NCBI GenBank assembly: GCA_036785375.1
Contig: JAWMAR010000243.1
Coordinates: 2,728,001-2,792,000 of the forward strand
Length of the DNA: 64,000 bases
Source of the DNA: Leucoraja ocellata
Taxonomy: Eukaryota
Direction: 5' to 3'
Position numbers and translations under genes: made by a program. A model generated the notes under the pieces. It was not told the origin of the DNA. It searched no databases and saw nothing but the letters and a program-made list of their open reading frames with translations. This document shows positions 8,266 through 58,460 of the stretch, in pieces. Within the stretch, counting starts at the first letter, position 1; each line of letters opens with the position of its first letter.

Positions 8266-9231
8266 TACTGAAAGAATGCTTCTGAGTGGGTGCCAATTTG
8301 ATAGATTAAGTCACTGAAGGGCTAATTGTTTTACAGAAACACCCATGTTACATATTTTATTTCTCCACAATGAACTGCATCCAGCATAAACCTCTGTATA
8401 AATAATTTTGTAAGTAACGGAATGAATTGCTTATCATTGTTTAACAAAACTATTTAATCTTTTATATAATGGTCCATCTGCATTTCTGCTAGTACCTAAT
8501 TACAGTTTTTACATTTTTATAATTTTTGTTAATTTTTTGTTTTAAAAAAAAGAGAATTTTAAAAATATTATTTGCATGACTGCCTGGGCTGATTATAATT
8601 ATAGCAGCGTACCCATTCGGTACACAAGATGTTTGATGATTATTAGCTGTTTGCACCAGTTTTAATTTGTTTCATTGCTGTTGTTTCAATTTTCCACCTC
8701 TTCATCTGTTTGCTGTGTATTCATGAGCAGAGAGATTGATTGATGTCAAGAAGACTGAGTGACATACTTTGCATGCAATGCAGGGTCAAACTTCTCTGGG
8801 TACTTGGGTGAACGGCGCAGATACAGTATTTGCTACATTTTAGCCTTGTGTAATTTAGTTCCATTGAAGTGACTGATGGAAACGCAACTGTACCTGTCTA
8901 ATTGCATTTGGCACAAGAGGCTAAGGTGGAATTCTCTCCCATGCACTTCACTGGTTCAAGCTGGCCTCTGTGTAAGCCAGTGTACAACACTCGCAAACTG
9001 TTAATTGCAGAAGCCCTTTATGTAGAGATTTCTGTAAATGCAAACTCCTTCAACAACCAGAAATATCTTCCTCCATTCCATCAATTACCAGCAGTGGGTT
9101 TTTTTTACATTGCAATCGCTAGCTGGTTTATACAGCAATTTGATTAGTTACCTTAAGTGTTATAAGTCTGTTTCGGAAGGAAATGGCTCTGAAAGAAAAA
9201 AATAATTATAGTTCAAATAATTTCTTTAAAA

Positions 9232-9597
9232 TGTCTTTAAAGGTCTTTAAAATGATGAAAGGGATAGACAGAGTTGCTGTGGATCAGCTTTTCCCTTTGA
9301 GAATAGGGAAGATTCAAACAAGAGGACATGACTTCAGAATTAAGGGACAGAAGTTTAGGGGTAACATGAGGGGGAACTTCTTTACTCAGAGAGTGGTAGC
9401 GGTGTGGAATGAGCTTACAGTGGAAGTGGTGGAGGCAGGTTCGTTGGTATCAATTAAAAATAAATTGGATAGGCATATGGATGATAAGGGAATGGAGGGT
9501 TATGGTATGAGTGCAGGCAGGTGGGATTAAGGGAAAAAAGTTGTTCGGTACGGACTTGTAGGGCCGAGATGGCCTGTTTCCGTGCTGTAATTGCTAT
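9232..9597 (+). mobile_element. CR1/HER1-like LINE 3' end (ORF2 C-terminus and 3'UTR)
   Basis: VFKMMKGIDRV...TRGHDFRIKGQKFRGNMRGNFFTQRVVAVWNEL is the CR1 ORF2 C-terminal motif. Confidence 0.9.
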
Positions 9598-16400: not shown

Positions 16401-19400
16401 GATATGGAAGATTAATACGAATCTGAGGGGCAACTTTTTCACACAGAGGGTGGCGGGTGTATGGAACAAGCTGCCAGAGGAGGTAGTTGAGGACAGGTTT
16501 GGAGGGTTATTGACCAAGCGCAGGCAAGTGGGACTAGCACAGCTGGGACATTGTTGGCCAGTGTGGGTGAGTTGGGCTGAAGGGCTTGTTTCCACACTGT
16601 AGTACTCTATGACTCTACATAGACAGTTGGAGATGGAAAGCCTCACGGTTAGAGTTTGGCAGTAGCAAGATTATTTTTGAATAAACATAGTTTCACTCCT
16701 GTAAACTTAGTTGACCAGATGAAAATGGCTGTATGGCTTCCCTGACTTTCAGTTGTAACTTACAATTATGACATTTAAAAGATATTTAGACAGATATATG
16801 GATGGAAAACATTTAGGGGGATATGAGCTAAATCCAAACCAGTGGCATTGGTCCAATTTTCCAATATGGTCAGCATGATCTAGGTGGGCCGAAGGGTCTG
16901 TTTCCGTGCTGTTCAGTGCTGGAACTCTACTGATAAGGAACCTAGAGTCGGCTTTCAGTATTTAGGCCTGTTGCTTCTGCCTCGACAATGGAAGATGAGA
17001 AGTAACCTCAACCAAACTGTTTGCAAATATAGATTGGGTCCATAACAGTCTGGTATTAAATGCAGAGAATAATAAAAAAGGAACTAAATAAATATAGTTG
17101 GCAGTACCTAGCAAATTATTGTATCATAGTCAGAAATAGAATGTGAAACTCCAAGCAGTTAGAACACTTAAAGTGGAAAAACCAACAATAAAACCTAATG
17201 AACTTACTTAAAGACGTGACGCACATGGAAGGACCAAGAAAAACTTATCTCAATATTTTGCTTTCCTCTTGGCACCTGTTGTATTAAAAAAAAGCTGCAA
17301 TGTTTTTTAATTTCTGTTTCTGGATGAGCAGAGAACTCTCCACATGCTGTGATGTTTACTTTTTGGTTTTGGACTTTGCCTATCCCCAGTGATGTGCAAG
17401 AGCCCGTGTCCTGATTTTGATAATAATTTAAAAATTAATATATTGTTAATTTATTAACAAGAGTTCAATTCAAGTGCCATTGCAAAAAAAAAAAAAAAAA
17501 ATCATTTTTCTGCCGATTTGATTCTAGAATTCAAAGTTTCCTGCTAATGTATTGTTCCCAGTGTGTCTGGGAGTTCTGTAAGTCCGCTTTCCTTTTTTTT
17601 AATTTTTATTTTTTATTTAATTATTTCTTTATTCTGCGCATCGTGAAATTAACTGGTGAGCGATATTTTGCATGTTGCATATATGCAATGAATGCAGCGG
17701 AATGGGCTATTTCAAAATTCCTAATGACCTTGTTCATCTAATTCTTGGCGAAGTGCATTCTCTCTGTTGGCGTAAGAGACCAATTCCTCAATCTTCCTTA
17801 TTGATTACTTTCTTCATCATGGCAGTCGCTTCTCGAAATCGAGATGCTACAACTCGGCCCCCTTGCCTTGCCTTGCCTTCTTATGAAACGCCTCCATTGA
17901 GGATTTTTCTTTTCCTGCCGGAAAGAAACGCTCTGCTTAAGTCTGGTTGTTGAAAGCTTTTTGATCAATTGACTTGAAGCAGCTTGCATGGTTTTTCTCT
18001 GGGAAGATTGCGTTAAACTGCCGGCTATCTTTGGCTCGGCCACTAGGCCACCACGACCCGCCATTTTGTGACCCGCCTCTGGCCTTTAGATAACAGTGAG
18101 AATAACTGCCGAGGAGGCATGTTTGCACAGGGTCATTGACTTTGACACACTGTTCTGTCGGGGTGGAGTCAAATGTGGGATTTCCTTAAGACATGCTGAG
18201 CTGTTACTTATCAGTGAAACTGATTCAGAACTCATGTGAACCAACTCAAATTAATTATTGAGAATGAAACTTTGTGCATCATGGTTGAACGTGGCTATCA
18301 CACTGGGACAGCAGAGCCAAAACTGAAAAGGAAGTAAAAGTACATTGCTTTAAGATGTTTTTAATTCATTTGTGTATGGCTTGTTGTTGTGAATTGTACA
18401 CTTGTTTGCATATTATTTCTCCCCCACAATCTAAAGATCTATACTTGCCAGCTTTCCTAAGCAAATATCATCCTAATCATGCAGCGTATGTACATCGCTG
18501 TTGAATTCACTCTGTTGTATATTTCAACCTTTTAAAACAAAAAAAAAAGATCTATACATACAAATATACACTTTGCAATTGAGTTACAGATTTATACAAC
18601 CATTCACAATTTAAACATAGGTGTCTGTGGTACAATTTAGTAATTGTACAGGACATGGTTCAATTAGGAATTCAGTTCTTATTTTGCCCTTGTGACTGCA
18701 TCTGGGTGTTTAAAATGTTGCTTAATAGTAGAAATTGGTATTTAGAATGATTGTAGTTTGATATGTTACAAGATTTAATTTTGAAACAATGTTTACACTT
18801 CAAGTTACTGACAGCGCTGTTTAAAATGTTGGTAATCCTGCTGCCTGCCTGCTCTCTTACACAGCCTAGAAACATAATGTTAAAAAATGAAAGCTACCCG
18901 CCTTGAATTTGCTCCAGTACAAATATCAATCATTTAGTTTCAAATAGATACCATAGGAAAAAGTGGTTAAGTGAACTTCATATCGTCTTTCAGCAGTCCA
19001 AAGCTACTTGCTCTGTTTGCTTTTGCTAAGTTAGTTTGTTCTCTCTGTCTCTTGCAGCTGACTTTGACGATGAGTTGATTATGTGCTTTTGCTTTTGTGT
19101 GGTTGATTATTTTGGCCACCTTTTGTCTGTTTGTTGAACTCTCTCCCGCTGGCTTCTCAGCACTCTGCATAAAAAGTGATTCTTTAATATGAAATATTTT
19201 TCCTTTAATTGCCTTCATGAAAATGTTTATACAAGGATTAAAGGTGACTCTGATCTCGTTAATCGCCGTGCTGGTTTGAACTGTATTGCATTTTCTGTGA
19301 TAAACGTATATTCAAACATTTTATAGACTGTGGTTACTAATGTATTTATTTGTAATTAATGCACAAAAATTGAGAACGTATTAGCACTATACAGTACATA

Positions 19401-22400: not shown

Positions 22401-24799
22401 CTTGTCGATAACCCCATGCAGTTTGTTACAGAATGTAACATTTTAATTGTGAATTACTATTTTACATCAATTAACAACTGAGAACTTATTAGACTCATTC
22501 CGTGGACCATTATTTCTGGTGAAATGTTCTAGATTTGTCTGGGGGGGAAAAAGGGTCCAGACCTGAAACATTCCCTCCACAGATGCTGCCTGACCTGCTG
22601 AGTTCCTCCAGCACTTTGTGTTTTAGTCAAGGCAGGTAGTGATTGTGCTGATCAAAATAGAAGGGAAAGGACACAACTTATATATGTCGTGATACTTTAA
22701 ATCGTGCCCATTGTAGGACTAATGCCTAGTGGAAACATCCACCATGTAAGTAGCACAAAATACTTGGGGAGAGGAATGGAGGAAGGAAAGTGTAGAATAT
22801 TGACTACCTTTCCCTGTAACTCACAATGTTAGTATCCAAATAAAGAGCATATATTATAACATATTTAAAGATGTTCATAATAGCATGATAAAACACAGTT
22901 ATCAGGTTGTGTTTTCCTGGTTTAAAGTGTTAGTCTTTTGCCAAGGTATAGTTTTACGTATCATTTTGTGTTTAAGACTCTGACAGTTTCAGTAAAGCAG
23001 ATTTTGTCAGTTTATCGTGTACTATTACCCCTCAAGGTAGCCTCAATATTTTCCACATTATGTGAGAAATGTGACTGATGGTTTCTTAAGAAGCAGTGAC
23101 AAAAGCTCATGGATAAATGCTCTTGGACATATTCAGGTAAAGTATGCAGGAGCACAAACAAAGCGCGAGAGGAACTTGCAATGCAGGAAAGGTTTAGAGG
23201 GATATGGGCCAAACACAGGCAAATGGGACTTGCTTTGATGCGCCACCTTGGTCGGCATGGATGTGTTGGACCGAATGGCCTCTTTTCAGTGCTGTGTGAC
23301 TACCAGCTCAGGAAACATTTGCGGAGTGAAATGGACAGATGACATTTTGGGTTGAGACTCTTCTTCAGACTACACATGACTATAATAGTGAGTCCGGATC
23401 GGACCGTGGCAGGAGAGCAGGAGGAATCATAGAGGGGGAGCAGTGAGAGGGGTCGCACAGAACCCTTGTCTTGGAGAGGAGGAGAACTTCCTTAAAGTGG
23501 GCGAACTTTGAGTAGGCTTTGCATGGAGTAGTAAAATATAGACATTAGAGGTTGGAGATGCTGGAGTCTGGTACCACAGAGAGGAAGGTCAGTTTTCTCT
23601 CAGTTCTGCTGCAGAGTATCACCCTGAAATGTCAACACATACCTTCTGCCTCCACAGATGCTGCCTGACCTGCTGAGTTCCTTCAGTGAATAAAAATGCT
23701 GGAGGAATTCAGTAGGTCAGGCAGCATGTGTAAAGGGAATGAACAGGGACACTTTAGACAGAACAATTTAGGAGAAAGATCATGTATGTGGGAATACCAT
23801 CTACAACTTATTCCACTGTGTTTCGTGCTTACAACACAAGTCAGGCAGCATGATTTAGGAATTCATTTAATTTGCTCATTGTTTGCTTCTCTGTGTCTGT
23901 ATTGTAGTCTGCACTTGTTTGACACCAGATGATTAACCCAATTAGTTTTTTACCAATCATTCAAATTAAAAGTCTTTTAAACCTTAGCTGCATTCGGCTG
24001 AAATAGATTGAAGAAATGACACAGATTTATCATGTGTATTCCTATTTATTATTCCAGCATGCATAGTTTGGAAAAAAATCTTTAAAGCAAACAGTTTAAT
24101 TATTTTGAATGTTTCACTCATACAGGGCAGGCTAATTAACCCTATCTTTGTAATAAGCCTTTAAGTACACTATCACGAGTGTTGTTTAATTGTGAGCTCC
24201 CTAATTAGTTTGATATGGATTATACAGTCAGCAGGTACTGCACTAAAGAGATTTTCCATCCTAATGTAGGCTATAGTGTGGAAGACATGATGGCAGAGGT
24301 AGGTCAGTACAGATTCTTAGTCTCCTGGACCCTTCTCATCATGATTATTCAGTTCTCTCTCTTGCCTTCCATTATTGGCATCAGTCTTCATAGAAACATA
24401 GAAAATAGGTGCAGGAGGAGGCCATTCGGCCCTTCGAGTCAGCACCGCCATGCCGATATTCATGCCAATATTCACCTTGCCTAAATCTGAGACTCCACTG
24501 AATCTGCAAATCCTGGGACTTTGCCCAATATTCTGACTGGCAATGCTCTGGGAGATGAAGGCAGGCCTCCAACACCAAAGGAATCGATGAGGAAATTAAA
24601 CTGGATTTTTAATCCGTGTTGCCATGCGCAAGCAGATGTGAATGTTCTAAAAGATGCCAACTTGGGTATCAGAACCCGTGTCCCAGTCCCCATTGCCAGA
24701 ACTACAGAAAAACATTCGAACCATACACCTTCTGACCTGAAAGTTGTCACTAAGTCAGAAGAATATTCTTGACGGAAGGTAATTGAAGGAATCTATAGC

Positions 24800-26500: not shown

Positions 26501-26959
26501 ATCAGAGTTATAAGGTAAAGTGTAAAAATATGGAAATAACAGTTACATTTTAAATGCTTTTTAATCAGTACTGTGCCCATCATTCAGTCTGGAGAGCAAT
26601 AAAGCTCCATGAAGAACTCTGGAGAGGTACCTACTGACTTTCACTAAGAACAATATCGCCCATCAATGGCTGAGTTCTGTGAATCTTGGTTTTAAAATTA
26701 CATTCCACAAAATACTTTTAACATTTGAAGTAGTGTTGTATCGGAAGTCTGAACATCAGACAATGTGGAAGAGGCTTTCATCCAATCCACTTTTTGTCAA
26801 TGTTTTAGGACAGTCACAGACAATTGTGTGGATTGGCAGAGTTATGACAGTAATTGATGGTGAGGCTGAGTTGGTGTTGCAGTTTCTTGTTATTGCCAGC
26901 AGGTAGCAGCATTGAGCTATTAGCGGCTCCAGGCAGGTGGGGGATTCCATTCAATGATT

Positions 26960-27090
26960 AAGAGGGAACTGCAGATGCTGGAAAATCGAAGGTAGACAAA
27001 AATGCTGGAGAAACTCAGTGGGTGAGGCAGCATCTATGGAGCGAAGGAATAGGCGACGTTTCGGGTCTCGACCCTTCTTCAGACCAGTCT
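26960..27090 (-). mobile_element. Single-arm Penelope-derived short element with intact minimal hammerhead motif
   Basis: Same family. Minus strand reads GGT-CTGAAGA-A-GGGTC-GA-GACCC-GAAA-CG-TC-GCC. Confidence 0.8.
27052..27085 (-). ncRNA. Minimal type-I hammerhead ribozyme motif (PLE type)
   Basis: Core CUGANGA and GAAA, stem II GGGUC/GACCC, palindromic loopless stem III (ACGU), GUC cleavage triplet, short stem I GGU/GCC. Activity not shown. Confidence 0.65.
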
Positions 27091-28397
27091 ACCAATTCAA
27101 TGGTACCTTTATGAATCATAAATGAAAATCGGGGACAGAAAATTTCTTAGAAACTTACATTGTTGTTTTAAAGTTTATATTGTATTCCAGCATGGTAATG
27201 TCATAATTTTCTATGTTTTACTTTGTTAACCAAGCACTAATTCATAACTACTGAGCGAGGAAGTGAGAGAGGAATATTGAAACTGTTGCAAAAGTACGGA
27301 TGATATATAACAGCGAAAGGATAACAAGTGTTGTGAGACTTTCCCACTGTAGCATTTAACACACAGACTGTATTCTGTGTCTGTCAGGTTAAATGGTTGC
27401 AAAATACAAGGTGCAGAAACATGAACAATTCACATTGACTCCTTCGTTCAAATTTCTCATCAGCTCTCATGTGTCTGAATTCACTGGTCTGCTGTATTAA
27501 CTCCTCTGCCTCTATACTACATCAAATGTAAACACAACTTTTTAATATTCCATATGATTTATATGCAGATTGTAGATACCTACTGGCTGTTTCGTTCTGT
27601 TAATTCACCTACACTCAGTCTTAAAGTTTATTTTAAATAGACACAATGCTGAAGTAACTCAGCGGGTCAGGCAACATCTCTGGAGAACATGGAGAAGTGA
27701 CGTTTCTGGTCGATCTGAAACAGTCCATTCCCTCCACAAATGCTACCTGACCTCCATTCCCTCCACAAATGCTGCCTGACCCGTTGAGTTACTCCAGCAC
27801 TTTATATATTGGTGAAGGTTCCAGCATCTACAGTTTTCTTGTGTCTCTCAAAGTTTTTTAAAATTAGAATTTTTAGTTTTTGGTGAAACAAGTAGATAAG
27901 AAAGTGACAGTATGGAGAGAGAGAGAGATAGGTTAAACGGTAGACGCCAGAGGTCAATTGCCATTATGGAACATGAGGGGTGTTCACTGAAGCAGCATTC
28001 ATAGTTTCTTGGAGCAGACTTAGGCTGTTCGGCCATTGAACCGGTGTGCATGGAGAATGGACTCAAGGTTCAAGGCAAAGACTGGAAGAGTGGCAGTTTT
28101 AGTTAATATCAAACCTTTCACAATCCTTATCATAATTCTAAATGGATCAATAGATGGGTACTAAATATGTGAGAAGTAAAAGGATAAAATGAACGGACTT
28201 GTTAGTCTTTGGAGCATGTTGCAGACTATTTCATGAATTCAATCCAAGCAATATTTCAGAGTTCAGGAAAACAATTGTCCAACGTTCATTGAGGACCAGT
28301 CTCCTGGGTCAGGGTGGCAGCAAATCAAAGCACCGGGATTTTGAGTCTGAACGATCCCAACCCTATACGTTGCCTACCCTATCCCTCCACTGATGCT

Positions 28398-28575
28398 TAA
28401 GAACTGCAGATGCTGGAAAATCAAAAGGTACACAAAAATGCTGGAGAAACTCAGCGGGCGCAGCAGCATCTATGGAGCGAAGGAAATAGGCAACGTTTCG
28501 GCCCGAAACGTTGCCTATTTCCTTCGCTCCATAGATGCTGCTGTGCCCGCTGAGTTTCTCCAGCATTTCTGTGTA
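28398..28575. mobile_element. Fold-back Penelope-derived short element with 14-bp TSD, nested in an older relative
   Basis: ~75-bp inverted arms (28426-28578) centred near 28502. CCTCCACTGATGCT duplicated at 28384-28397 and 28576-28589. Confidence 0.85.
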
Positions 28576-29770
28576 CCTCCACTGATGCTGCCTGAACCCC
28601 CTGAGTTCCTCCAGCACTTTGCGTTTCACTAACATGTCCATTTAATCACTTAGTTTCTACTTTAATATTTTCTCAAATTTCTGATGTTTCTCATGTTGCT
28701 TGAGATAGTGAGATTAATGTTTTATTTTTTATCCCAGTTACCACACAACCTGTGAACAGTATCAGAGGACAATCCAGAGGCAACAGTGCTGGTGTGGAGA
28801 CATAAATACGTAGGCTAGATCAGGTAAGGAAAGCAGGATTCATTCTCAAAAGGGCTCTGGTGAGGTTTTTACAACGATCTGACATTTCTAACATTGCTTG
28901 TACAGATAATTACCTTCCAGGTTTCAGTTTATTTTAACAGAATTCAGAATTCAGATTAATTGGGTTTGAGTTACCCAATATATGACACTTAGCGTAGTAA
29001 CAAACACATTGTAATTACTGTAAAACTTCAGCAATGACTTGAGTAAAATAGCAACCCTTCCAGGGCTTGGCTCCAGAGAGTCAACTCCTTTTTATAAATG
29101 CACGGTTATGGCAATCCCACCACTGTGAGCACGACTGCAAGTCTAGCACGGTGCGTCAATGGTCAGATATCTTTTGGTCAAGAGAAGAAGTGGATAATTG
29201 AAGATCAAGACCTCACACCCAGCACAAACTCATGGTCAACTTAGTTGCGATGATGTCTTCATGCTTCTGTGATTTGAACTACTCACACCAAAGCCTCGAA
29301 GCAATTTCAACAATGCAGTCTCTGCAAAATTCTTCAAATGTGCGTGCAGGATAAGGCGATCCATGTCAGTGTCTCATGCCCAGCACAAGATGCCTGAAGG
29401 GGGCGCTCCAAACACAACTCTTCCATGGAAAGAAATTGAGATGGACATTTGTAAAGATTCCTTGATTTACAAAAAAAAATTGTCACTGGTGTGAATGGAA
29501 ATCCTGAATCAACGCTGTAAGATTGTTCTGTAAAGGTAAAATGGTTGGCCAGGTAGACTGAAATAAAAAAGCATGAAATGGCTGCTGACTAGACTTGTTG
29601 AAACTGGGGCTGCAGGTTTCAGGAAGGGACTGCACAATGTCTTGCAGTTACTGCATAGTCGTGAATAGGGGATCACCTGCTCCGTCTGACAAGGTTGAGG
29701 AATATACAATCCCCCTCGCCGGGAAGACTAAGGAATGTACCGGTCTGATCTCTAGTGTGGTTCCTCTAAC

Positions 29771-30165
29771 TAACATCTCCTCATCTACTGCATCCGCTGC
29801 TCTAGATGTCAGCTGATCTACATCGGGGAGACTAAGCGGAGGTTGGGCGATCGTTTCGCCGAACCTCCGCTCAGTCCGCAATAACCTACCTGAACTCCCG
29901 ATGGCTCAGCACTTCAACTCCCCCTCCCATTCCCAATCCGACCTCTCTGTCCTGGGTCTCCTCCATTGCCAGAGTGAACAACACCGGAAATTGGAGGAAC
30001 AGCACCTCATATTCCGCCTGGGTAGCTTGCATCCTGATGGCATTAACGTTGAATTCTCCCAATTTTGCTAGCCCTTGCTGTCTCCTCCCCTTCCTTAACC
30101 CTTGAGCTGTCTCCTCCCATCCCCCCGCCCTCGGGCTTTCTCCAGCAATTTTGTGTACCTTCCTT
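29771..30165 (+). mobile_element. Penelope-like retroelement 3' fragment: GIY-YIG endonuclease C-terminus plus tail
   Basis: Translates as LIYCIRCSRCQLIYIGETKRRLGDRFAE / LRSVRNNLPELPMAQHFNSPSHSQSDLSVLGLLHCQSEQHRKLEEQHLIFRLGSLHPDGINVEFSQFC*, with a frameshift near 29863 and stop at 30071. Shows the IYC-CxxC-YIGET pattern of PLE endonucleases. Continues into tttctccagcaattttgtgtaccttc, the tail shared with the short elements. Confidence 0.88.
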
Positions 30166-31814
30166 ATATGTACATACCTGTTGTCCTGTATTTTGCGTAC
30201 GTGTCGGTTCCTTGATTGGGGGGAATGTGGGAGGTGCTAAACATTGGCATTAAAATATAAAAGGCATTGCAATTAAGGGCAGAGAGCTTGACTCTTTGCT
30301 AGGTTGTTAACCTGTGTGAAGACTCAGTGCTGAATAAACGTACATTTAAAGCAACCCTGGTGTCCGGTCGATTATTGTCGAAACAACCGATGTAAGCGAA
30401 AAACGAGAATCAACACTGGTTCCTGGGAATCCATGAATTGCTCTAGGCAATAGGGGAATACTTGGCATGGGAGTGAGAGTTTGAGTCTGTGCATCAGGAG
30501 CACATGGAAGCCCTGCATTAATGGCAGAAGAAGTGTCCCACCTCCTAAACCATCCACCCATCAGCCCTGCCAAGCACACTGGCCTCTTCAGTCACGTCAG
30601 GATCAGAGTCTTCTCAACATCGGGATGGGGAGGAGCAGAGCTTCATTTGATCAATTTGTTAGAGTTACCAGCTTATTGGTGTGATGGGAAACCACCATGG
30701 ACAAGAATGTCAATAAAGGATTGAGTGAAAAGTTCATTATGATTAAGAAAGTTTTATTTTGTGACTACAGCACGTCAAGGCGCTGATGGCATTGCGCTGG
30801 GCCATGCTGACCCCTATTTCATCCACCCGTGCCACATGGACCCCAGGGCTTAAAGGAATGATAATAAGAAATCGCACATCTCCTAGGGCCAGAGACTTGG
30901 ATGTTGCAAGATGGTGCTGGAACGTGGAGACACTCTGCGTGCTGTTCCAGACGTTCTATTATAGTCATGTATTGTATGATTTGACTGGATAGCAGAACAA
31001 GCATTGCACTCCCTCTCTGTGCACGTGGTAGTAAATTGAACCATTGGAAGCAAGTCGCTGTCAGGGTCATTAAAACAGCAGCAGCATCGTGTGTCCATGT
31101 CTCCAGGGAGATTGGGAGCAGAGTCTGTTCTGGAGAAAGAAAATAATGAAAATCATCTTCTGCTTTTCCGCCATCGCAGGAAAAATAACTGCAGATACGT
31201 GGATGTGAATCGCGCTTGTGTATTGTAGATGGACTGAATGAAATATCAAAGATCATGTTTGAGCCTTTATTCTTGCCCTTCGTTGAACTGGCACATACCT
31301 CACCACAGGGGGCATGGATCTCAGACTCTGTGTCGTCTCCATGTCATCTCTGGTGAACAGCAGCAGAGACCAGAGTGTATCATGAGGGAGGGGAAATAAT
31401 TTGATCTGTTAAGTAAAACATTATATGTTCTCTGATTCTAATCCTGATTAGATCATGGCTTTCTCCATACATTTATTGTGCCAGTTCCTTTAGTGCAATG
31501 AAACTTAAATGGAAGTGGCTAGTGTAATAAATATGTAATAAAGTCTGTGATGAGCACTCGAAAGCTATAAATGTAATGCTAGAGTGGTTGTTAAAAGGCA
31601 AGGAATCAATCCAGTGGTAATGTGTTGTTCAAGTCACCACTACGCCAGATTTGACTGAAAAGATGTAACGTTTAGCCTGGATGACCCTGGTGACAGGGAA
31701 ACGAAAGTTCACTTTCTGAATGACGACGCAGGTCTATTGTGGGTCAGGTGAGGAAGGGATAGAGTTAGATAATTGAAAACTATTTCAAATGTTAATCGCA
31801 GTGGGATAATGTAG

Positions 31815-32115
31815 ATTCAAACAAGGGGACATGACATGAGAATTAAGGGACTGAAGTTTAGGGGTAACATGAGGGGGAACTTCTTTACTCAGAGAGTGGT
31901 AGCTGTGTGGAATGAGCTTCCAGTGAAGGTGGTGGAGGCAGGTTCGTTTTTATCATTTAAAAATAAATTGGATAGTTATATGGATGGGAAGGGAATGGAG
32001 GGTTATGGTCTGAGCGCAGGTATATGGGACTAGGGGAGATTATGTGTTCGGCACGGACTAGAAGGGTCAAGATGGCCTGTTTCCGTGCTGTAATTGTTAT
32101 ATTATATTATATATT
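31815..32115 (+). mobile_element. CR1/HER1-like LINE 3' end
   Basis: Highly similar to 9310-9590 (KFRGNMRGNFFTQRVVAVWNELP); AT-rich repetitive tail. Confidence 0.9.
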
Positions 32116-33995
32116 AATGTAGAACCACGGTGATGGATGGTCGGCGTAGACTTGATGGGTCGAAGGGCCTGTTTCCATGCTGGTTTTTTAAATTTCAATC
32201 AACCAAACATACCTGGGACTCCTCCCCGCTCAAAAGAGTTGAGAGTGAGAGTGATGGAGCTTTTTGTTGGGTTATTGTGTCAAGAGATTTACAGTAAGGA
32301 AACAACGTTGAGATACAGGATAACTGATCTTAATGAATGGCAGTGGGATTAAATGTCCCAACTGGTCACTGTGATACTTAACTGCAGCTCAATCCTTCTG
32401 CAAGGACCCCAGATCTTGTTTAGCAAAGAAGGGAAATGCATTGGCATTTTGATTTTTTTTGTGAAGTAAACTTCGTTAAACCTAGACTGCGAAGGACATC
32501 CCAGATACTCCTCCATCGAGCTGTTTGAACACATCTGTTGTTTGGAAAGCTTTCTACCCATTTGTAACTGAAGCCCTTGAATGTCTGGCTGACATGTTGG
32601 ACATGATGCATTACACCTCAACAGACAGCGGACTTTAAGCTGCAGCTACACAGCTGCTGTATGGGACAGATGGGACCTGCAGTGAATCACTACGTGAAGC
32701 TGGCATCCAAAGCATTGTTGGCTGAAGGATGGAAAGAGATGCACTGAAAGCAAAAAGGTATTACAATGGAGACTTTGTGCTTAAAACAGTGCATTAAACA
32801 AAATAGAAATGTGGTGAGGTTGGCACTTGAATAGGAAGTTTGTTATTCTCCCCATCTATCCTGGACCATGGGTGCTTGCTGCCATTAACTTCCATGATCA
32901 TAATGTTGCTAGAGCTGAGAGAGGCTAATGAATGTGCAGACATAGAGTGATTGTAACTTGTCTATTCAACCATGTGTAGATGAAGTCAATGGTGGGGAAG
33001 CTGGTCTGCATTATCATAGGAGGACTAACAGTAAATACTTTGAACCGTTTGTCCCGACTGAAGCGGGTACTTAACTATTTTATGTGTTAAAGAGTGTACA
33101 GCTGTTCATTACTTTGACTAATCACTGCTGCTAAACGAAACTTGATTACAAAGTCATTAGTCATTGTGCTGAATAGCACAGAAATGTATACAAAGATCAG
33201 GCCCAAACTGGATATTTTTTACGTGGCACTGGTAGCTGGTTCAAGTCAGCCTGTGATATTGAAAGGAAGCTCCTTTTCCTATTTCTGTCCAACTCACGGG
33301 CACAGCCTCGGTTGCTGCTCAAAGCGGTTGAGTGAAGCCCTTATTTAAAAAAATCCACACATGCAGTTTAACATCAGTGAATGGTGATCGTGGCTGATTC
33401 CAACATTCCAGTCACCCTCAACTCCTTGCCAAGTCCATTGGCTATTTTTGATAGATTGGGTCCATGCTGGTTTGAATGGTTCTGTCCACGTTACATGGAG
33501 GCATTATCCTGAATTCAAGACCATTTCATTCAAAGCAACAAAATCATAAATTGGAAATTCAAGAGAATGTAGTAAAACTTAAAATAACTGATCACCTTAA
33601 AGCCGGCCTTTAAAATGAAACTTTGTTTTCGGAAGCAGGTCTTTAACAGTATTTGGACTGCCCAGCGAACAAGGAGAACTCTTAATACTACTTCCCTACT
33701 CTATCTCACCCCAAATCCCTACCCTGTCTTAGTTTCTTGGCCATGGATAATCGTGAAATTGCAGAAATGTAGAGCTTGGAGAATGTTGTTTTGATAGTTT
33801 GGGAGATTTTAACAGAATCTTTGATTAACACGTTTAGACCAGAGATACTTCAAGTATTGATGTATCAGTGAGATGTTGTATTCTAGCACAAAATGAGTAT
33901 GTGCCTGCCCCAGATCAAATACAGACCACAGGTTGAACGGAGACGTGAGTAGCTCTGGGCTACTCCAAGCTTTTCCTTGAATTATGAATTGGAGA

Positions 33996-34294
33996 GGCAC
34001 GGTGGTGCAGCGGTAGAGTTGCTGCCTTACAGCGCCAGAGACCCGGGTTCCATCCTGAGCACGGGTATTGTCTGTACTGAGTTTGTATGTTCTCCACATG
34101 ACCTGTGTGGCTTTTCTCCGGGATCTCCAGTTTCCTTTCACACTCCCAAGACGTACAGTTTGTAGGCTAATTGGCTTGGTATAATTGTAAATTGAGTGTG
34201 GAAGATAGTGTCAATAGGTGGAGATCACTGGTCGGCAAGGACTCAATGGGCCAAAGGGCTTGTTTCCGTGCTGTATCTCTAAACTAAACTTAAC
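33996..34294 (+). mobile_element. HE1-like tRNA-derived V-SINE
   Basis: ggcacggtggtgcagcggtagag (A box), ccgggttccatcc (B box), V-domain-like gagtttgtatgttctcc...gcttttctccggg, LINE-like tail gggccaaagggcttgtttccgtgctgtatctc(taaac)n. Confidence 0.82.
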
Positions 34295-36066
34295 TTCAAT
34301 GCTGTGCGTGATGTCTTTTACAGTGGTGCTGGAGAATTTAAGAATGTTGAATAGATGATAAAGGCTTGTTTAATTATTATTGAGAGAATGCTATGTTTTT
34401 CCAAGATGAGACATAACTTTGCGCTGTTGGTCATTGTTACACAGAACATGATGAATTATTCACTGAACCAATGGGGAGCAGCTCATTGTTATTTTGTTCC
34501 CATCTGCTGTCGTGGTAATAATCAATCTCCAACTGACAAGTAGAAATATGTCCTCACCCCTCCCACACCCGTGTAACACATTGCAATAAATCGTCTTATG
34601 TGAAGCTGATGAGAGAACAAACCGGGATCTCCCAGCAATTCCACCGCACAGTGACTTGTGGAATCCGGTGGCAGCTGGAGGCATGGGTAATGCCATTGTC
34701 ATGCTGATACCTATTTCCATGACAGATGAGACCAACAGCAGGACAGGCATCTGTTGAGGGCTGAGGAGGTGGGGGTGGTCATTCAATCCAGATTAGCCAG
34801 ACCCTTGTTTGTTAACCAAATAAAAAGAATGCAGCTGCTGAAGTCTCCACGGCTTCAATATCAATATATGGATAATAAATCGAGCATTAATGTTGCCTTG
34901 TCCTATCCAGCACTACAGAGAGTTCTTATTATACTGTTAACTTATGTGATTATCTCCCTATTATTGATTCTTAAGATAAAGTCATGCAGCACGGAAACAG
35001 TCCCTTCGGCCCAATTAGTCCATGCCAACCAAGATACCCCATCTAAGCTAGTCTCATTTGCCTGAATTTGGCCCACATACTTCCAAAATCTTCCTATCCA
35101 TTTACTTGTTCCAATCTTTTTCAAATGTTGTTATTGTACCTGCCTTGACTACTACCTCTAGCTCGACAAGCTGTTCCATATACCCACCACCTTCCGAGTG
35201 GAAAAGTTGCCCCGCAGATTCCTGTTAAATCTTTCCCTTCTCACCTTAAACCTATTTCCTGTTTCTTGATTCCCCTACCTGGGGAAAAGACTGTGCAGTC
35301 GTGCTATCTATTTCACACACAATTTGCATCTAGAAGCGGTAGGAAATTATTATATAACTGAGTTGATAATTTTCATTGAAAATTGGATGTTTATTAAAAT
35401 TCGTACAGTGCTATGTGAAATTACATGGAAATATTCTTGTATTTAATCATAAGTGCACATTTGGCCCGGATTTGTATTCAACAGGGTGTCGTTCCACTTG
35501 TCAGAGAATAGCTTTAATTCAAAATTGCTCTTTTTATGTACTTTTAATTAAAAAGATGAAATGTGTGTTACAAAAAGAAAGCTTTAGTGTTGACAGATTA
35601 ATATTCAGAACTCCAGTGGTAAAGTCAAAAGTATTTAATTGTCATTTGCATCGAAATGGAACAATGACATTTTTATTCTCCTTGTGCTCCTACAATGAGT
35701 TTGGTTACAATCGTAAACTCAGTCCAATATGGGTATTGTGAGACCGATGAGGGGAGTGATGTAATTTTTCTCGATCTGTGGGGAGGAATCTGTTGATGAT
35801 TTCACTTATAGCTGCCATCGAATAAGTACCCGAGTGTTTGTGTGTGGACAGGGTGCACTGAAAAGTTGCACATGAAAAATTGATACATTTTAGCAATGGC
35901 TGTCAGATTCTGTAGGAATAGAATCTGTTCAAAAATGAGAAAAAATATTATTTATCTTTTTAATTATATCGTTAATCAATATTGGATAGCCAACTGGAAT
36001 GCAACCGATTTTTTTATTTGTTGAAGATCCATTTTAAATTTGAGAATGAAATACGCCCTCCCCCAC

Positions 36067-36745
36067 TCATAATCATCATAATCATATTTTATTAGCCAAG
36101 TATGTTTTGCAACATAAGAGGAATTTCAGTGGCCGTACAGTCATACCAATAAAAAGCAACAGAACACACAAGATACAATTTAACATGAACATCCACCACA
36201 GTGATTCCCCCACATTCCTCGCTGTGAGGAAGATGGAAAACAAAGTTCAATCTCTCCCTTCTTTGTCCTCCAGCGGTCGGGGGCCTCTAACCTTCTGTTG
36301 ATGGGACGATCTTACTCCCATAGCCGGTGACGGGCCTTCCTCGTCGGGGCGATCAAGCTCCTGCATCGGGGAGGAATCTCAGCTCCCCCGCACCGGGCAA
36401 TCTACCCCGGGTCAGGGCTAGTCGGACATCGTGCGGCTTTTGGAGCTCCCCGATGTCGGTCTCAACCTGAGACTGCGCACTCACCAACGGTGAAATCCAC
36501 AGGCCGCGGTTGGAGCGTTGATCCCAGGCAAGGGATCGGCTCCGATGGTAAGTCCACGTCCCCGCAGTGGGGCTCAAAGACAGCCCCGAGCAAGGCCGCC
36601 AGCTCCACGATGCTAGACCGCAGAGATACGACCAGAGATACCATCCAGAAAACAATTGCATCGCTGGCAAGGTGAGAGATAGAAAAAAAGTTACCCCCGA
36701 CCCCCCCCTCCCCACATAAAACAAACCAGAGAACATTAACATGTT
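36067..36745 (-). mobile_element. GC-rich interspersed repeat with AATAAA and microsatellite tail, probably a non-LTR derivative
   Basis: Abrupt GC/CpG-rich block. On the minus strand it ends aataaaaatatgattatgatgattatg. Shares a segment with 26355-26420. Confidence 0.55.
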
Positions 36746-38338
36746 TAAAGGGGCTGTCCCACTGCAGTGACCTGGGAAAGTTTGCAAAAGTGTCATGTTG
36801 AAGACATCCATTGACTATGTTGAGGACTGGCTTTGGGAAAATTGGACACCGAATAGTGGAGTGAAGACGACCTCCTTCGACCTCCCTTTGACTATGTTGA
36901 AGATTATGTACGACTTCCTTCGACTACCTTCGTGCCACCATGCCGCAAAGCTCTAATTTTGGAGTTGATTATGACTTTTATTTGAAAAACAGAAGGGGAG
37001 CAGAAAGGAGCCAAAAGGTCTGAAAAGGGTCCTGATAGTGAACATCGCTATCCATGTTCTCCAGAGGCTGCCTGACCCACTGAGTTACTCCAGCACTTTG
37101 TGTTCCAAGGAGCCATAAGTAATGTTTGTGTTTATAGTTTCCAAGACTGGTGCACCAAATCAATGGATACTGCAATTTGCTTCAGCACTTGGGGCAGCTG
37201 CCTGTTCATTTGATTGATTTTGGTCAGTGATGATACCAGTACTGAAATATTTGAAGTTCTGCCTCTTTGGATGGAAGCATATTGAAACCATATGTAGTAC
37301 ATTCCATCTCTTTCCATTCCACAGAAAATGGTTCAAGCTTTCTAACTGGACTGGTGTACATTTTGGATAAAGCTTTCACATTTACACACCATCTTCTGAA
37401 ACATTTTGCAAAAGGTGCCTGATCTATTGTTCTCTTAACTCTATTGAGGATGGGTTTAAGACTTGAATTGCATATTGAAAGCTTATATTCTTTGCTCCAT
37501 TCGTATGTGTGTGTGTTTGTGTGTGTGCCTCGACCACACATATCTGTCACATTTTGAAGGGTCATAGAAGATGCAGTATGAAAACTTTTAAAATACCACC
37601 TTATAAAAGTAAGGGGAATGATGAAGATTGGGGATGAGGGTTTTAGTTCTGCGGTTTGACCTATGCTGTAAATGATTTGAGAGATCTCAGTGCTGGGTTA
37701 CCAAGATAGAAAGAGTTTTGTGTTCCTCTGTACTGATATTCATCAAGGTGGAAGAGTCTGCGGAGAATCACTTAAACTAAACATCCTCCGCCCCCTCCCT
37801 CAAATACTGTCAACAGGTAAAGGTCAATAGTTTGCGTCAAAAATGGTGGCTTTTGGAGTGTGTTAACTGAAGGGAATTGTTCTGTCAAATAATGCTTGGC
37901 CAGCTAACTCTAGGTGTCAATAATTGTCGCACAGCTTCTGCAAGGTCACTGAAAGCGGCAACAGTTATGAAAGGTGGTAATGACGTTAGTTAATGAACCA
38001 CGCTTAATAAACCTAATCTGACTGGCAAAGAAATACCTGCGTTCATCTTCCTGTCAGTTTTTATTGGCGAGCATTTTTCTCCTCTCTTGAAAGTGGCCTC
38101 TTACTCTAGGGTGTGGGTTTTAAAGCACCTCAAGTGATCATACCTGTACTAAATTTGTCACTTTACGTGGGAATTATTCCCAAAATAATTAGTGCTCCAA
38201 GATGTGCTAATTCAGCACAGACGTGGAATTAAACTGTTGGGACTTACAGCTACCAATTGAAACATCAAGAACTTTAACCAAAGGATAAACTATTTCATGA
38301 TTAAAAACCATAAACGATTATTTTCTCATTTTTTTCAA

Positions 38339-38344
38339 TTTATT
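38339..38344 (-). terminator. Candidate SH2D3C polyadenylation signal (AATAAA), implying a ~2.3 kb 3'UTR
   Basis: TTTATT on + at the end of an AT-rich stretch below the stop codon with no repeats I recognised. Confidence 0.4.
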
Positions 38345-40632
38345 AGCATTTCTCAACTTTTAATCAACGTGTATTTAAAAAAATTATTTTAATTGCACCA
38401 ATGAAGTCGGAAATGACATACTGTACTGTACGATCACTTACTTTCGCTCATACACATCTTAATACAAATGAAATCATTCATAAACAACCAAGATTATATT
38501 CTGTAACAAATGGGACAATTTTATGTAAGGACATATTCATTATATACATCTGTTTCTATTTACACTGTGCCATTGTTGCAAAAGCAGAAGAACACTGAAG
38601 AGTTTTGCGGTTAAACATAAATGTAATTAGATGGCCTGAGGACCACATTAGTACGTATATGAGGTATGTTCCTTTTTTGGGCAATTAATGCAGGATTGGT
38701 GTTGGACATGTACAGTATTAACTGCTGTTGTCTATTCGGTTGTGTCTGTTTGGATCTGTGCACCTGCATTCCATTTGTTGTGCCATTCAACGTGGCCAAT
38801 GCCAAATGGAGTGCTTTTAAACATTTGTTATGGTGTGTTGGATGTGACTCGGAAAGCATAGTTTTGGCAGCATCTGTCTCAGAAACAGAATAATGCTGGC
38901 CCCTCCCCCAAAGGAACCTCTTGGGAATAGCAGAAAATGTTAGCACTGTGGTGAAGGCCTGTCTTCAGCTTTTACAGAGTTCATTGTCTTCAGCAGTAAG
39001 ATATACCACCTATGCGTCTAACCCTAACCTTATTCACTAACACTGTTAAGTACACTGGTAATTACATATTTTCAAGTTAAATTCTGTATTTTAAGCCAGA
39101 AAGCTACAAAAGAGTGAGTCTATTCCAGATTGTTGAGTTTCTCTACTCCTTCAATGAAAGACAATTTGATGTGCAGGAGTCCAACAGGACCGAGGAAAGG
39201 TTAGTACCCTGATACTTAAGAGTACAATTACTCAGTTTTTGCAACAACCCCTTCCCCCCCCAAAGTCTTCCCTCCCATGGCATGTCTTCTGTTTTCCCTC
39301 CTGAAAGTGCATGCTTGGGTCCTTGGGTTTAACTTTCTTCAAAGTAGTTTAAGCAAAGAAGTCCAGTTGTAGAGGGTTGGAGAGCATACAAGGCATCAAT
39401 GTTTCACATGTGCAGAAGGTCACTGAACAAAGATTGGAAGCTAAACATTTGCTTCCTATCTAGTTGCTCGGGTAATGGGCAGCATCTGTGTGTATCTTCA
39501 CTCTCTGTCCCTCAGTGTTGCCTTCAGAGTGCAGATTGTGCTCTCTGCTATTAGAAAGCTCTAAGCCATCTCAAAAATGAGATGCCTCTCACACTGCACC
39601 CGGTTGGGTTGACATGGGTGCATGGTGTTACTGATGGCAATTAGTCTGGGATTCCCCTTCCCACCAATACAGTGGTATTGGGTAGCGAGTGCTGATGTGC
39701 CATCTTACCCCTAACTTATCTCACAGTATAATTTTCCGGTAAGCTAACACAGTGAGACAGTCAGATGTTATTTTATGGATAACAAACCAAACAACCCTAG
39801 TTTTGCCTCTGAGGGATTGCTACCTGCCATCTTTCATTAAGACTTTGTTGATTTTTTTGTCATTTAGATCTCGGAGGCATCATTTGACTAGATCTCCTTT
39901 AGGCAGTGGAGCACCATGACATTCACAGCTATCATTTCCTCACATTCAAGATGTTAGATAACTACATATTGCAATATTGTTGATTAGTTTTTTTTTGGAA
40001 AAAGTGCAAATCTTTTTGGATTTGGTCACCTTTTGAAAGATTTATCAGTTTTCCACTGTGGTTTGGTTCCTCTTCTAAAACGTGCCAATTCTAGCTCCAG
40101 AACCTTATCCACATGACTGTTGTTCAAAGCAGGTTTGACCGTCAGTCCCAGTAAGCTAGTAGCATCTTGGCTTCATCCAATTTCAAATGCAGGTCCACTT
40201 CCCAGTAAAACTCACTGGATTGCAACTGCTTGCTGAGTTTCCTCCCCACTTCTCCAGTCTAAAAGAAAAGTTCCTTTTCACCCTCTGTAACACCTCAATG
40301 TTCACCTTGATGAAATGAGATTACATTTTGCACATGTTTTCTGTGGACTATTCTGATCCATACTGCTTGGCAATAAATGATTAAGAACGTTATCAAAGCA
40401 CTAAGTCCGAGATTGTCATAGTTTCTAAGATCTATAACCGTTAATCAACGTTTGAAATCCATGCCCATCTCTTTCTATTTATGAATCTGTGCACACATGA
40501 ATTACCAATGACTTACGATAGCCCATTAAACAGATGGGATTTCTAGAAATAAGTGAATGAGAAAAGAACAATACTAGGAAGTTCCTGTTTACTGATCCCC
40601 TTAACCAGGCTTGCGAAGATATTTGCTCCATG

Positions 40633-40808
40633 CTACAATTCACTGTGACGGACTGGAGGCTCCAGCTTGTTCGACAGTGCACATAGGACCTTGTCAAACT
40701 TTTTGTATCGCTCGGCTTGGCTGCCGCCTGCTCCTCGGCTGCCCCACAGCAACCGCATTTGGAACTCTGTCTTGAAGACTTCAAGAACTTGCTCATTCTC
40801 CTGAAAAC
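40633..40808 (-). CDS. SH2D3C: SH2D3C last coding exon (end of Cdc25-like/NSP domain)
   Basis: Acceptor cgcag|GT. Encodes (G)FQENEQVLEVFKTEFQMRLLWGSRGAGGSQAERYKKFDKVLCALSNKLEPPVRHSEL*. The end resembles SH2D3C (-EPAVRSSEL) more than BCAR3. Confidence 0.95.
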
Positions 40809-41540
40809 CTGCGGGATGCAAAAGAGAGTGTGACTTGCTTTGAAAACAAAGCTAGGATGGTGTAAACATCTCCTTTCAAATGGTGTTCCAGATCATTCAA
40901 CTTGCTCTAATTTAAAACAAAAGTATTTTATTATCCATGAAAGTTAGTTTGGGGCATTTAAATCGAGTGATGATTAAGGAACGGTGATGTACAAGTCATG
41001 ATGGTGTATGACGTGGTTGGGGAAGCAGTGGGGGTGATATTCCTATGCATCTGTTGAACAGTTAGGAACATAGAAACATAGAAAATAGGTGCAGGAGGAG
41101 GCCATTCAGCCCTTCGATCATTGTGATCATGGCTGATCGTCCACAATCAATAACCCGTGCCTGCCTTCTCTCCATATCCCTTGATTCCACCAGCACCTAG
41201 AGCTCTATCTAACTCGCTCTTAAATCCATCCAGTGATTTGGCCTCCACTGCCCTCTGTGGCAGGGAATTCCACAATTTCACAACTCTCTAGGTGAAACAG
41301 TTTTTTCTCACCTTAGCCCTAAATGGCCTCCCCTTTATTCTAAGACTGTGGCCCCTGGTTCTGGACTCGCCCAACATTGGGCGTTCTTTCTAGGTAGGTG
41401 AAGTTGTGGGTTTGAGAGGTGCTGAGTGAGTAGCAGAAATGAGAAACATCGATTCATTCTGCTGAGGTTGTGCACCAGTCATGCAGAGAACAAATGTTTA
41501 GACTGGTGAATCTGGTGCCAAACAACTGAATTGAATGGTA

Positions 41541-41740
41541 GGTAGACAAAAAAGCTGGAGAAACTCAGCGGGTGCAGCAGCATCTATGGAGCGAAGGAAA
41601 TAGGCGACGTCTCGGGCCGAAACCCTTCTTCAGAAACGTTGCCTATTTCCTTCGCTCCATAGATGCTGCTGCACCCGCTGAGTTTCTCCAGCTTTTTTGT
41701 GTGCCTTTGATTTTCCAGCATCTGCAGTTCCTTCTTAAAC
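41541..41740. mobile_element. Fold-back Penelope-derived short element
   Basis: Inverted arms of the same family. ATTGAATGGTA duplicated at 41530-41540 and 41748-41758. Inserted in an older LINE fragment. Confidence 0.85.
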
Positions 41741-42413
41741 ACAATGGATTGAATGGTATTGAGCTCTTGAGTATTGTTTGAGCAACACTCATCTTCGCAA
41801 GGGAAGCATGTTCCATCATACCCTTGACTGTGCCGTGTACACGGTTTAAGGCTTTGTGGCGCAGGCGAGTCGCTCCCCACAGGATACCCAACCACATTCC
41901 TGCTCTTGTAACCGTCTTATTTATGTGGTTGGGGCAGATGAGTTTCTGGTCAATGGTGACCCGGGGGACATTGAGGTAGAGGATGCAGCATTGGTAAAGT
42001 AACTGAATATCAAGAGTACATGGTTAGACTGACTCTCGCTAGAGATGGTCAGGGCCTGGCACTTTGTAGCAATAATGGTATTTGCAACTTAACAGCCCGT
42101 ATTTGTGCCTGAAGGTATGCACGGTTTCATTTGATGAGGAGTTCCAAATGGACTTGAACTTTGTACAGACATCAGTGATCATCCCCACACTCCATCCCCT
42201 TTGGTTTTATAGTGGTGGAAGGTCATTGATGAAGCAGCTGACGATGGCTGAGTCTTGGACAGTACCCTGAGGAAATCTTGTCGTGATGTCCTGGGGCTGG
42301 GATGATTGATATCCAACAATCACACACATGTCCCTGAACTGAAGTGAGTGCATTCTCTGCGCTCTGAGTTTACAGCTAGCTAAAACCTTACCACCAATAT
42401 TAAAACCTATCAG

Positions 42414-42620
42414 AGGTACACAAAAATGCTGGAGAAACTCAGCGGGTGCAGCAGCATCTATGGAGCGAAGGAAATAGGCAACGTTTCAGCCCGAAACCCT
42501 GGAAGGGTTTCGGGCCGAAACGTTGCCTATTTCCTTCGCTCCATAGATGCTGCTACACCCGCTGAGTTTCTCCAGTAGTTTTGTGTACCTTCGATTTTCC
42601 AGCATCTGCAGTTCCTTCTT
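42414..42620. mobile_element. Fold-back Penelope-derived short element
   Basis: Near-perfect inverted arms of ~85 bp. TAAAA(C/T)CTATCAG duplicated at 42401-42413 and 42620-42632. Confidence 0.85.
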
Positions 42621-43435
42621 AAAATCTATCAGCTTGGATCTTGTCCAAACCCCAGTCTCATAGGGTCAGGATACCTGCTATGTATTGACAGCTGCTACGC
42701 AATAATAATGGAATATGTGTGCATATTGTCTTACTTTTAAGTCCCCCTCCAGCTTCCACTATTTCCCCGAACCAGACAAACAAATTGCTCTTGGCTTCAT
42801 GCCAATTGTGTTTTGTAACCATCTAAAAGGCTTGTGCAGGATAACCTTGTGATAGGGGTTTCCTTCCTTTCCCATGACAAAATAACCACCATCTGTTCAG
42901 TCCAGCCCCTCCTCCCATACTGGACCAAGGCACAAAAGCAGCCAGAATGTGTGTGTGTAGCTACATCCTCCCCTGCCATTATCTGCTTTCCACTTTGCCT
43001 TCAAAGCAAACGTGGCTTTGAACTAAACAGATCAACGAGGGCGCACGAGAAACTGCAGATGCTGGAACCTTGAGAAGAACACAATAGTGCTGGAGGGACT
43101 CAGCGGGTCAGGCAGCATCTGTGAAGGGAATGGACAAACGATGTTTTGGGTTGGGTCTGATCGGTTTGGGTCTCCAGCCAAGGCCACATGAGCTGTCCTC
43201 AACTAGGTGGCAGTGGTCACACTGTTGGATGCAGCAGCCCGAGTCAAAGCAGTAAGAAAGAAAAGTCCAACACTGGTTCCTCACAGTGCCCAATGCTGGG
43301 AAACAATAGGAGATGCTTAGGCCAGGCCAGTACAGTGTTTAAACAGCTAGTCACTGTCGAAGCTCATGTAAAGATTGGATTTGGTACCTGGGTGGGCATT
43401 TGGCTTGAACCCTGCCGGTCTTACAGCCTTTAGAC

Positions 43436-58162: not shown

Positions 58163-58460
58163 GAGCACAGTGGCATGGCGGTAGACCTACTGCCTTGCAG
58201 CACCAGAGACCCAGGTTCAAAACTGACTACGGGTGCGGTCTGTACGGAGTTTGTACTTTCTCCCCGTGACCTGAGTGAGTTTTCTCTAAGATCTTCGGTT
58301 TCCAAAGGCGTGCAAGTTTGTTGGATACTTGACTTGGTTATAAATATAAAATTGTCCCCAGTGTGTGTAGGGTAGTGTTAATGTGCGGGGATCACTGGTC
58401 GGTGCGGACTCGGTGGGCCGAAGGGCCTGTTTCTGCGCTGTATCTCTAAACTTAACTAAA
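58163..58460 (+). mobile_element. HE1-like V-SINE (more degenerate copies at ~58859-59040 + and ~59160-59325 -)
   Basis: Collinear similarity to 33996-34294, including the tail gggccgaagggcctgtttctgcgctgtatctctaaac. Confidence 0.8.

Follow-up and report, generated by a model that had tools for sequence, protein, structure and literature searches.

The closest described systems are known from earlier work, which is cited throughout from the accessible parts of each source. In Penelope-like elements that carry an endonuclease (EN+), inverted pseudo-long terminal repeats (pLTRs), a tail on one side only, a target duplication, palindromes at the junction and a 15-bp overlap have been described (PMC3846280), and the inverted pLTR layout has been presented as general (PMC8557442). 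For the Poseidon element of Anolis carolinensis, in vitro experiments revealed two start sites of reverse transcription that bound the tail, and both target strands were cut and extended; the enzyme is a predicted dimer and hammerhead cleavage is not needed (PMC11167929). Minimal hammerheads of Penelope-like elements have a CUGANGA core and occur as dual motifs on opposite strands 100-700 bp apart (PMC4209133). We analysed a stretch of 64,000 nucleotides from the skate Leucoraja ocellata (assembly GCA_036785375.1, contig JAWMAR010000243.1, positions 2,728,001 to 2,792,000; hereafter the window), in which three palindromic insertions turn inside a hammerhead motif, together with related loci of the assembly (numbered with the prefix L). 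The structure of these insertions has already been described, and they are dead stumps of a known class. We consider it probable, at roughly 70%, that the palindromes are 5'-truncated insertions of an EN+ Penelope-like element which were built anew at each site by twin priming.

Positions in the element are numbered with the C of CTGAAGA as +1. The inverted-repeat arms of insertion A (28426-28501 and 28503-28578) have 97% identity, those of insertion B (41540-41613 and 41633-41706) 95%, and those of insertion C (42409-42500 and 42504-42595) 93%. Each insertion is flanked by its own 14-bp target-site duplication, matching at 14/14 positions in A (28384..28397 and 28576..28589), 13/14 in B (41527..41540 and 41745..41758) and 13/14 in C (42400..42413 and 42619..42632). 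In A, the tailed arm (+11 to the tail end; 28398..28509, minus strand) and the tailless arm (+11 to +94; 28495..28578, plus strand) share a 15-bp self-complementary motif at 28495-28509 with its centre at 28502; the turn is centred on +18, and its centre base matches the tailless arm. In B, the tailless arm (+94 to 0; 41540..41634, minus strand) contains the whole hammerhead core and is longer than the tailed arm, which starts from +21 at the turn (+21 to +130; 41633..41742, plus strand). In C, the tailless arm (42414..42500, minus strand) runs from +94 to +8 and is followed by one extra base at 42501 and then by the tailed arm (42502..42620, plus strand), which runs from +6 to the tail end. 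An earlier note on the window had described three independent long inverted repeats, each with its own duplication and each turning in the hammerhead motif. All of this was borne out, with the turns at differing positions, and none of the three lies on the axis of stem II (+14/15). Such insertions resemble Pen2a_Av of Adineta vaga in the head-to-head pLTRs, the 31-37 bp tail on one arm, the duplication and the junction palindromes, and the two arms of Pen2a_Av overlap by 15 bp, as they do here at the +18 word (PMC3846280). In contrast to what the accessible text describes for Pen2a_Av, the skate family includes tens of thousands of minimal cases of ~190-230 bp without an open reading frame, enough of them to count arm lengths and centre bases.

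By sequence relationship, the palindromes are assigned to the 3'-terminal 90-130 bases of an EN+ Penelope-like element, because relatives of a fragment in the window run into the hammerhead and longer copies carry reverse transcriptase (RT) and GIY-YIG domains. The fragment (29779..30160, plus strand) is a 5'-truncated piece of the parent element with the end of the endonuclease (EN) domain and the 3' untranslated region (UTR); a deletion in it spans the hammerhead, and it ends at the tailless site (+94). Its portion 29779-30135 has 97-98% identity to 39 other loci among the matches listed. Inspection by eye showed that 28 of 29 such loci among these matches run through the C-rich tract into the hammerhead, and that 4 of them have their 3' end at about +129 and the others at +94. 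A Pfam scan of the short window fragment alone gave no match. Matches slightly below the curated cut-offs were obtained for RVT_1 in L223 (E=2e-5) and for GIY-YIG in L231 (E=1.6e-4). The long copies have a single frame with the RT followed by the GIY-YIG endonuclease, and their 3' end corresponds to the stumps, in agreement with the Penelope origin that had been proposed. Both L223 and L231 have a CX4CXXC linker between RT and EN. Because a CX2-5CXXC linker at this place is named as a Neptune/Nematis feature (PMC8557442), the element would be of Neptune/Nematis type as judged from the linker alone. The optional tail is present, the 3' ends at +94 and +129 being 35 nt apart, and so are inverted 5'-truncated pLTRs with a target duplication, including the long copy L229, in which a short inverted arm ending at -2 lies opposite a copy of at least 1.4 kb. 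No direct upstream hammerhead (tandem pLTR) was found in 12 long loci, none of which reach the 5' end of the element.

An exact 38-mer from the element end occurs 72,520 times in the assembly. Exact-motif palindromes number 6,245 (gap 62-92) and 7,912 (gap 31-61) genome-wide, compared with 0 for the reversed control pattern, and are therefore beyond chance. This count of at least 14,000 covers gaps of 31-92.

A minimal type I hammerhead was read directly from the sequence, with a conserved core, a stem II and a palindromic stem III. It is located in the 3' UTR, where it follows a C-rich tract ending at about -6. Stem II, in which +9..+11 pair with +18..+20, is only 3 bp long and stem I 2-3 bp, and the cut is predicted after +28. 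Two self-complementary words overlap this region, GTTTCGG.CCGAAAC at +11..+25 (axis +18) and TCAG.CTGA at -4..+4. The motif shares with metazoan Penelope-like hammerheads the CUGANGA core, the unpaired base before stem II, the GAAA and the palindromic ACGU that replaces stem III, and differs from those described in the accessible text in its short stems I and II and in a rival rod (PMC4209133). This rod is the predicted lowest-energy RNA fold and is not better than those of shuffled sequences. The predicted fold of the complementary DNA (cDNA), GTTTCG/CGAAAC with a 3-nt loop, is located at the +18 word rather than at stem II and does not exceed shuffled sequences in stability (z -0.24 to -0.62). 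An Rfam scan gave no hammerhead match at E<=1. Its 14 matches were to microRNA and snoRNA models, far below their cut-offs, which fit the hairpin shape, and they were rejected.

Junction frequencies were taken from a sample collected blind to the junction, consisting of 160 stretches of 10 kb at fixed positions on contigs 1-160 and the first 30 exact-core loci; a DNA search biased toward insertion C was excluded. Of the 134 anchors obtained, 16 were dropped (5 with low identity, 5 duplicates, 3 at edges and 3 with the tail only), and the remaining 118 comprised 77 unpaired stumps, 30 palindromes and 11 odd cases. Two palindromes were removed by hand to leave 28, namely the duplicate L260 and the tailless/tailless pair L257, whose second arm (86% identity, without a duplication) was taken as a neighbouring older copy. 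The long palindrome L242, with arms to -356 and -248, was filtered out and is absent from the 30. Seven of the 77 unpaired copies extend past the end of the reference (-647) and may have partners further upstream. Duplicated loci occur in the assembly (e.g., L054/L056), and the palindrome listings include a few of them. A second set consisted of 20 loci chosen from the listings as asymmetric, blind to the tail side; 18 were usable and 2 had lost the tail.

All 28 clean palindromes consist of one tailed and one tailless arm, as do 4 of the 11 odd cases. In 8 of the 28 the tailless arm exceeds the tailed arm in length, in 6 the reverse holds and in 14 the arms are equal; in the 18 loci picked as asymmetric the corresponding numbers are 13, 4 and 1. 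Pooling the asymmetric cases, the tailless arm is longer in 21/31. By eye, the centre base of the +18 junction is that of the tailed arm in 16 and that of the tailless arm in 8 of 24 unique loci including insertion A, and an inverted centre at +18 was seen in 0/100 listed intact-core copies and 1/62 stumps. Target duplications were found in 90/98 palindromes when all sets were pooled, including the biased one, and 62 of them are 14-16 bp long. Divergence is 3.4% between the two arms of one insertion and 7.5% from one insertion to another, and the arms mostly carry the same letter at variant sites (52/55, 59/63, 59/63, 63/65 and 62/68, the 63/65 being for +81, where 35.7 were expected). Identical junctions recur across different variant backgrounds. 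The shared variant letters and the recurrence of junctions on different backgrounds together argue for one template per event and for a junction that was made repeatedly.

Six of the 28 palindromes turn at the +18 word (a seventh is ambiguous), four at TCAG.CTGA, two are blunt at -1/-1, one is at +29/+29, and the others are scattered. By eye, 31 of the first 50 short-class palindromes listed match a +18-centred junction in length, and 4 are centred on stem II, all of them in variants with a stem II of 4-5 bp and a broken +18 word. In the long class, 10 of 50 listed have the length of the TCAG.CTGA junction (by eye). The hot spot thus tracks whichever self-complementary word a variant carries. 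Eleven inverted pairs occur among 100 listed places, and by eye 7 turn in the hammerhead region and 4 hundreds of bases upstream. The earlier note had taken stem II as the usual axis and had suggested mapping the breakpoints. The mapping confirmed a concentration in the hammerhead region and the importance of self-complementary sequence, but not the preference for stem II. An inverted centre GGC (+17 to +19) was also seen in 13/54 arms of the palindromes nearest to insertion C (L002-L030 and window 42484-42520), compared with 0/100 listed intact-core copies; this excess may reflect a biased query, or the two copies of the 15-bp word may have exchanged sequence.

Unpaired stumps (77) are more numerous than palindromes (28), and both end in the same zone. 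Their 3' end is at +94 in 47 and at +129 in 30. At the 5' end, 16 stumps extend beyond -8, 31 end at -7..0, 13 at +1..+8, 2 at +9..+12, 4 at +13..+28, 1 at +29 and 10 further 3'. Genome-wide, 30,878 copies are exact from -1; the letter at -2 is not the A of the element in 5,782 of them, and in 11,375 the match continues to -8, the -8 pattern being one base shorter at its 3' end than its companion patterns. Because stump ends and genome-wide counts show the same boundary, the pile-up at the front edge of the ribozyme belongs to all copies and is not specific to palindromes, and it coincides with neither stem II nor the cut site. A stall of the RT at stem II was rejected as its cause, since only 4 of the 77 stumps end at +13..+28, and the hammerhead cut was rejected as the main cause (1/77 stumps at +29, immediately after the predicted H17 at +28), in line with the earlier proposal that cleavage seldom sets the turn. 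A G-quadruplex in the cDNA appears unlikely because most ends precede the copying of the C tract. A cap-derived extra G was weak as an explanation and was not accepted, the letter at -2 being G in 38, C in 33 and T in 29 of 100 listed copies. Few arms end at +29 (both of L235 at 1451-1613 and one of L301; an arm at L239:1487-1552 was noticed as well), which may come from rare cleaved templates or from the AGGCCT word. As to an origin of the boundary from a circular, retrozyme-type template, tail sequence ahead of -1 was noticed only at L121 among the matches listed, where 8969-9356 holds three head-to-tail copies of a -1 to +127 unit, a retrozyme-like arrangement.

The favoured reading is the following. 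Nicks made by the enzyme in both target strands, about 14 bases apart, would each prime a copy of the element RNA, with one cDNA starting from the tail end (+129) and the other from the inner start (+94). Both cDNAs would usually stop within about 130 bases, mostly at -7 to +8, ahead of the hammerhead core. The stop is probably the 5' end of the RNA at an initiator-like TCAGT, or possibly a block at the C-rich tract. The TCAGTCT at the boundary fits the initiator consensus. Penelope of Drosophila has an internal promoter with an initiator and a downstream promoter element, and the short arm of L229 ends within the boundary zone, at -2. Being of the same sense, the two cDNA ends could pair only through self-complementary words, and joining would occur at GTTTCGG.CCGAAAC (+18), at TCAG.CTGA (0), at a long stem II where one is present, or through 0-5 bp of microhomology or filler. 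In the symmetric class, the two ends may be joined when one cDNA folds back at such a word, with the second priming still required. Extension from one side only would leave an unpaired stump. What is directly observed is that the pair of ends is fixed, that duplications are present, that the junctions vary and that the parent has an RT/GIY-YIG frame. The stump ends at +94 or +129 match the two start sites of reverse transcription found in vitro and thereby support twin priming, while the step from that assay to inverted insertions is one that we infer. A fuller version is doubtful in our view: a dimeric enzyme with two fixed starts on one RNA, one for each nick, run-off of both cDNAs at an initiator just ahead of the hammerhead, and joining by pairing or folding of the cDNA ends at self-complementary words of the ribozyme core. 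In this version the ribozyme sequence would act as a joining signal, and the variant with a GNA loop, which is enriched at the joint, would be the record of a hairpin.

The mechanism suggested in the earlier note was that the nascent cDNA may fold back on a hairpin and prime its own copying; in a complete form of this explanation, the endonuclease resolves the product at the tailless site. Self-priming has been proposed for inverted pLTRs, on an antisense template (PMC3846280). The predicted cDNA hairpin sits exactly at the commonest junction, the +18 junction is found in 6 of 28 palindromes (7 with the ambiguous one) compared with 2/77 stumps ending at +9..+12, and turns centred on stem II appear where stem II is longer. 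In addition, a GNA triloop would form in the cDNA of a recurrent loop variant, and such triloops form stabilised DNA mini-hairpins. However, a tail-primed cDNA can copy only what it holds, so the tailed arm would have to reach at least as far 5' as its partner and to supply the loop. Neither the longer tailless arm of most asymmetric cases nor a centre base from the tailless arm can be obtained in this way, and the many junctions without a hairpin and the stumps ending at the tailless site alone are left unexplained. The counts of arm length and centre base thus argue against self-priming alone, and snap-back as the sole route is already refuted unless later deletion is invoked; we regard it as improbable. 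Because the tailless arm is often longer and often supplies the centre base, two primings are needed, unless the centres were deleted later. In this last explanation, all palindromes would have been inserted long and symmetric, with the turn at about -1 or upstream, and would have lost their centres by slippage between the direct repeats that the words form. Perfect -1/-1 palindromes do exist (L037 and L254), palindrome arm ends are shifted 3' relative to those of stumps, and a loss between two copies of the 15-bp word gives the identical +18 junction. Nevertheless, palindromes with the +18 junction are no more diverged than longer ones, either in the tail (22/550, 4.0%, compared with 19/517, 3.7%) or in the core (17/1112, 1.5%, compared with 21/1075, 2.0%), in what is a weak test with 20 loci on each side, and the pair of a tailed and a tailless arm would still need an origin. 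We give later deletion only a small chance of being the general explanation.

Copying of a unit resembling a miniature inverted-repeat transposable element (MITE) from one or a few master palindromes would account for the single junction shared by about 60% of the short class. Four dispersed composite insertions, three in L179 (250-1150, 6100-7000 and 9300-10000) and one in L109 (4650-5600), carry the same embedded junction as cargo, which suggests that a palindrome can occasionally be multiplied. These composites consist of an older hammerhead end, internal 66-bp tandem units and the embedded young palindrome, which one of them holds twice. On the other hand, the shared junction and its centre variant are found on several backgrounds and in both orientations to the tail, and the other junctions vary widely. 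The MITE-like family of the earlier note was rejected as well, since the arms are unequal by the tail, the parent is a retroelement, unpaired stumps ending in the same zone are in the majority and some pairs turn hundreds of bases upstream. A master palindrome is very unlikely as the general source.

Several points weigh against twin priming as proposed here. The evidence consists of fossil sequence only. Long palindromes delete their centres, and both the asymmetry and the +18 junction could postdate insertion; concordance of the arms can also be obtained by repair within a hairpin. The tailed arm supplies the centre base more often (16:8; p=0.15 versus 1:1). Of the 31 +18 palindromes listed, 10 (from 8 unique loci) carry a TCC/GGA centre variant (+17 to +19) that was seen in 0/62 stumps and that plain annealing does not explain. 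This variant occurs in several backgrounds and in either orientation relative to the tail (5 and 3 unique loci; L263-L272) and may be the mark of a hairpin or added-base step, or an assembly artefact. The in vitro data are from a lizard element of the Poseidon clade, a different family. The excess of G at -2 (p=0.044 versus base composition) is confounded by an A-to-G change and by the G run of the partner. RNA reads on L070, from source organisms that may differ from this one, reveal no site where many molecules begin. Their depth is equal on both strands over the stump and shows a step near -6 that RNA and DNA runs have in common, a pattern consistent with passive transcription of many copies; it was given no weight for or against a start site.

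Twin priming is familiar from L1, in which a second primer at the opposite nick yields an inverted 5' part joined by microhomology. In the skate family, unlike in L1, the second copy would begin at a fixed site, 35 nt away from the first start, and the same stretch would be copied twice, so that a palindrome results. With Poseidon, the family shares the two start sites that bound the tail; it differs in its CX4CXXC linker and in the hammerhead in the 3' UTR behind a C-rich tract, and the accessible Poseidon text does not mention inverted insertions (PMC11167929). Animal non-LTR retrozymes are likewise short hammerhead-bearing ends of Penelope-like elements, with the head-to-tail triplet at L121 as a counterpart, but those in the accessible text are tandem, whereas the insertions studied here are dispersed, head-to-head and have their own duplications (bioRxiv 10.64898/2026.07.22.740005). 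A search of the accessible literature found no application of twin priming to such insertions.

The window contains further copies. An old diverged head-to-head copy (27640..27848) had been said to turn at the same place as the young insertions; by eye it does turn near +14/+19, although the arms look like those of different old variants and the duplication is degenerate (12/14). An unpaired tailed stump of a sister variant (-1 to +129; 26955..27084, minus strand) has a duplication of 10 bp, together with some filler bases similar to the beginning of a tailless arm. An older inverted pair at 23642-23745 is arranged tail-to-tail with a short AT-rich spacer, in contrast to the head-to-head form. 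Insertion A has an older copy from the same repeat class as its target, and young copies inside such older copies were noticed at 28340-28630 of the window and at L002, L013, L023 and L229, so that old ends may perhaps be favoured as targets. Further dispersed repeat families (D8, D11, D14-D20) were noticed at 1925-2026, 3797-3898, 16555-16912, 32089-32202, 34180-35062 and 58347-58460.

How Penelope-like elements finish an insertion, and why their ends are inverted with a one-sided tail, are open questions in the accessible literature (PMC8557442, PMC11167929). With more than 14,000 exact-motif palindromes in the genome of this skate, arm lengths and centre bases can separate the published self-priming from twin priming. 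The self-complementary words are identified candidates for mutation in the existing in vitro assay.

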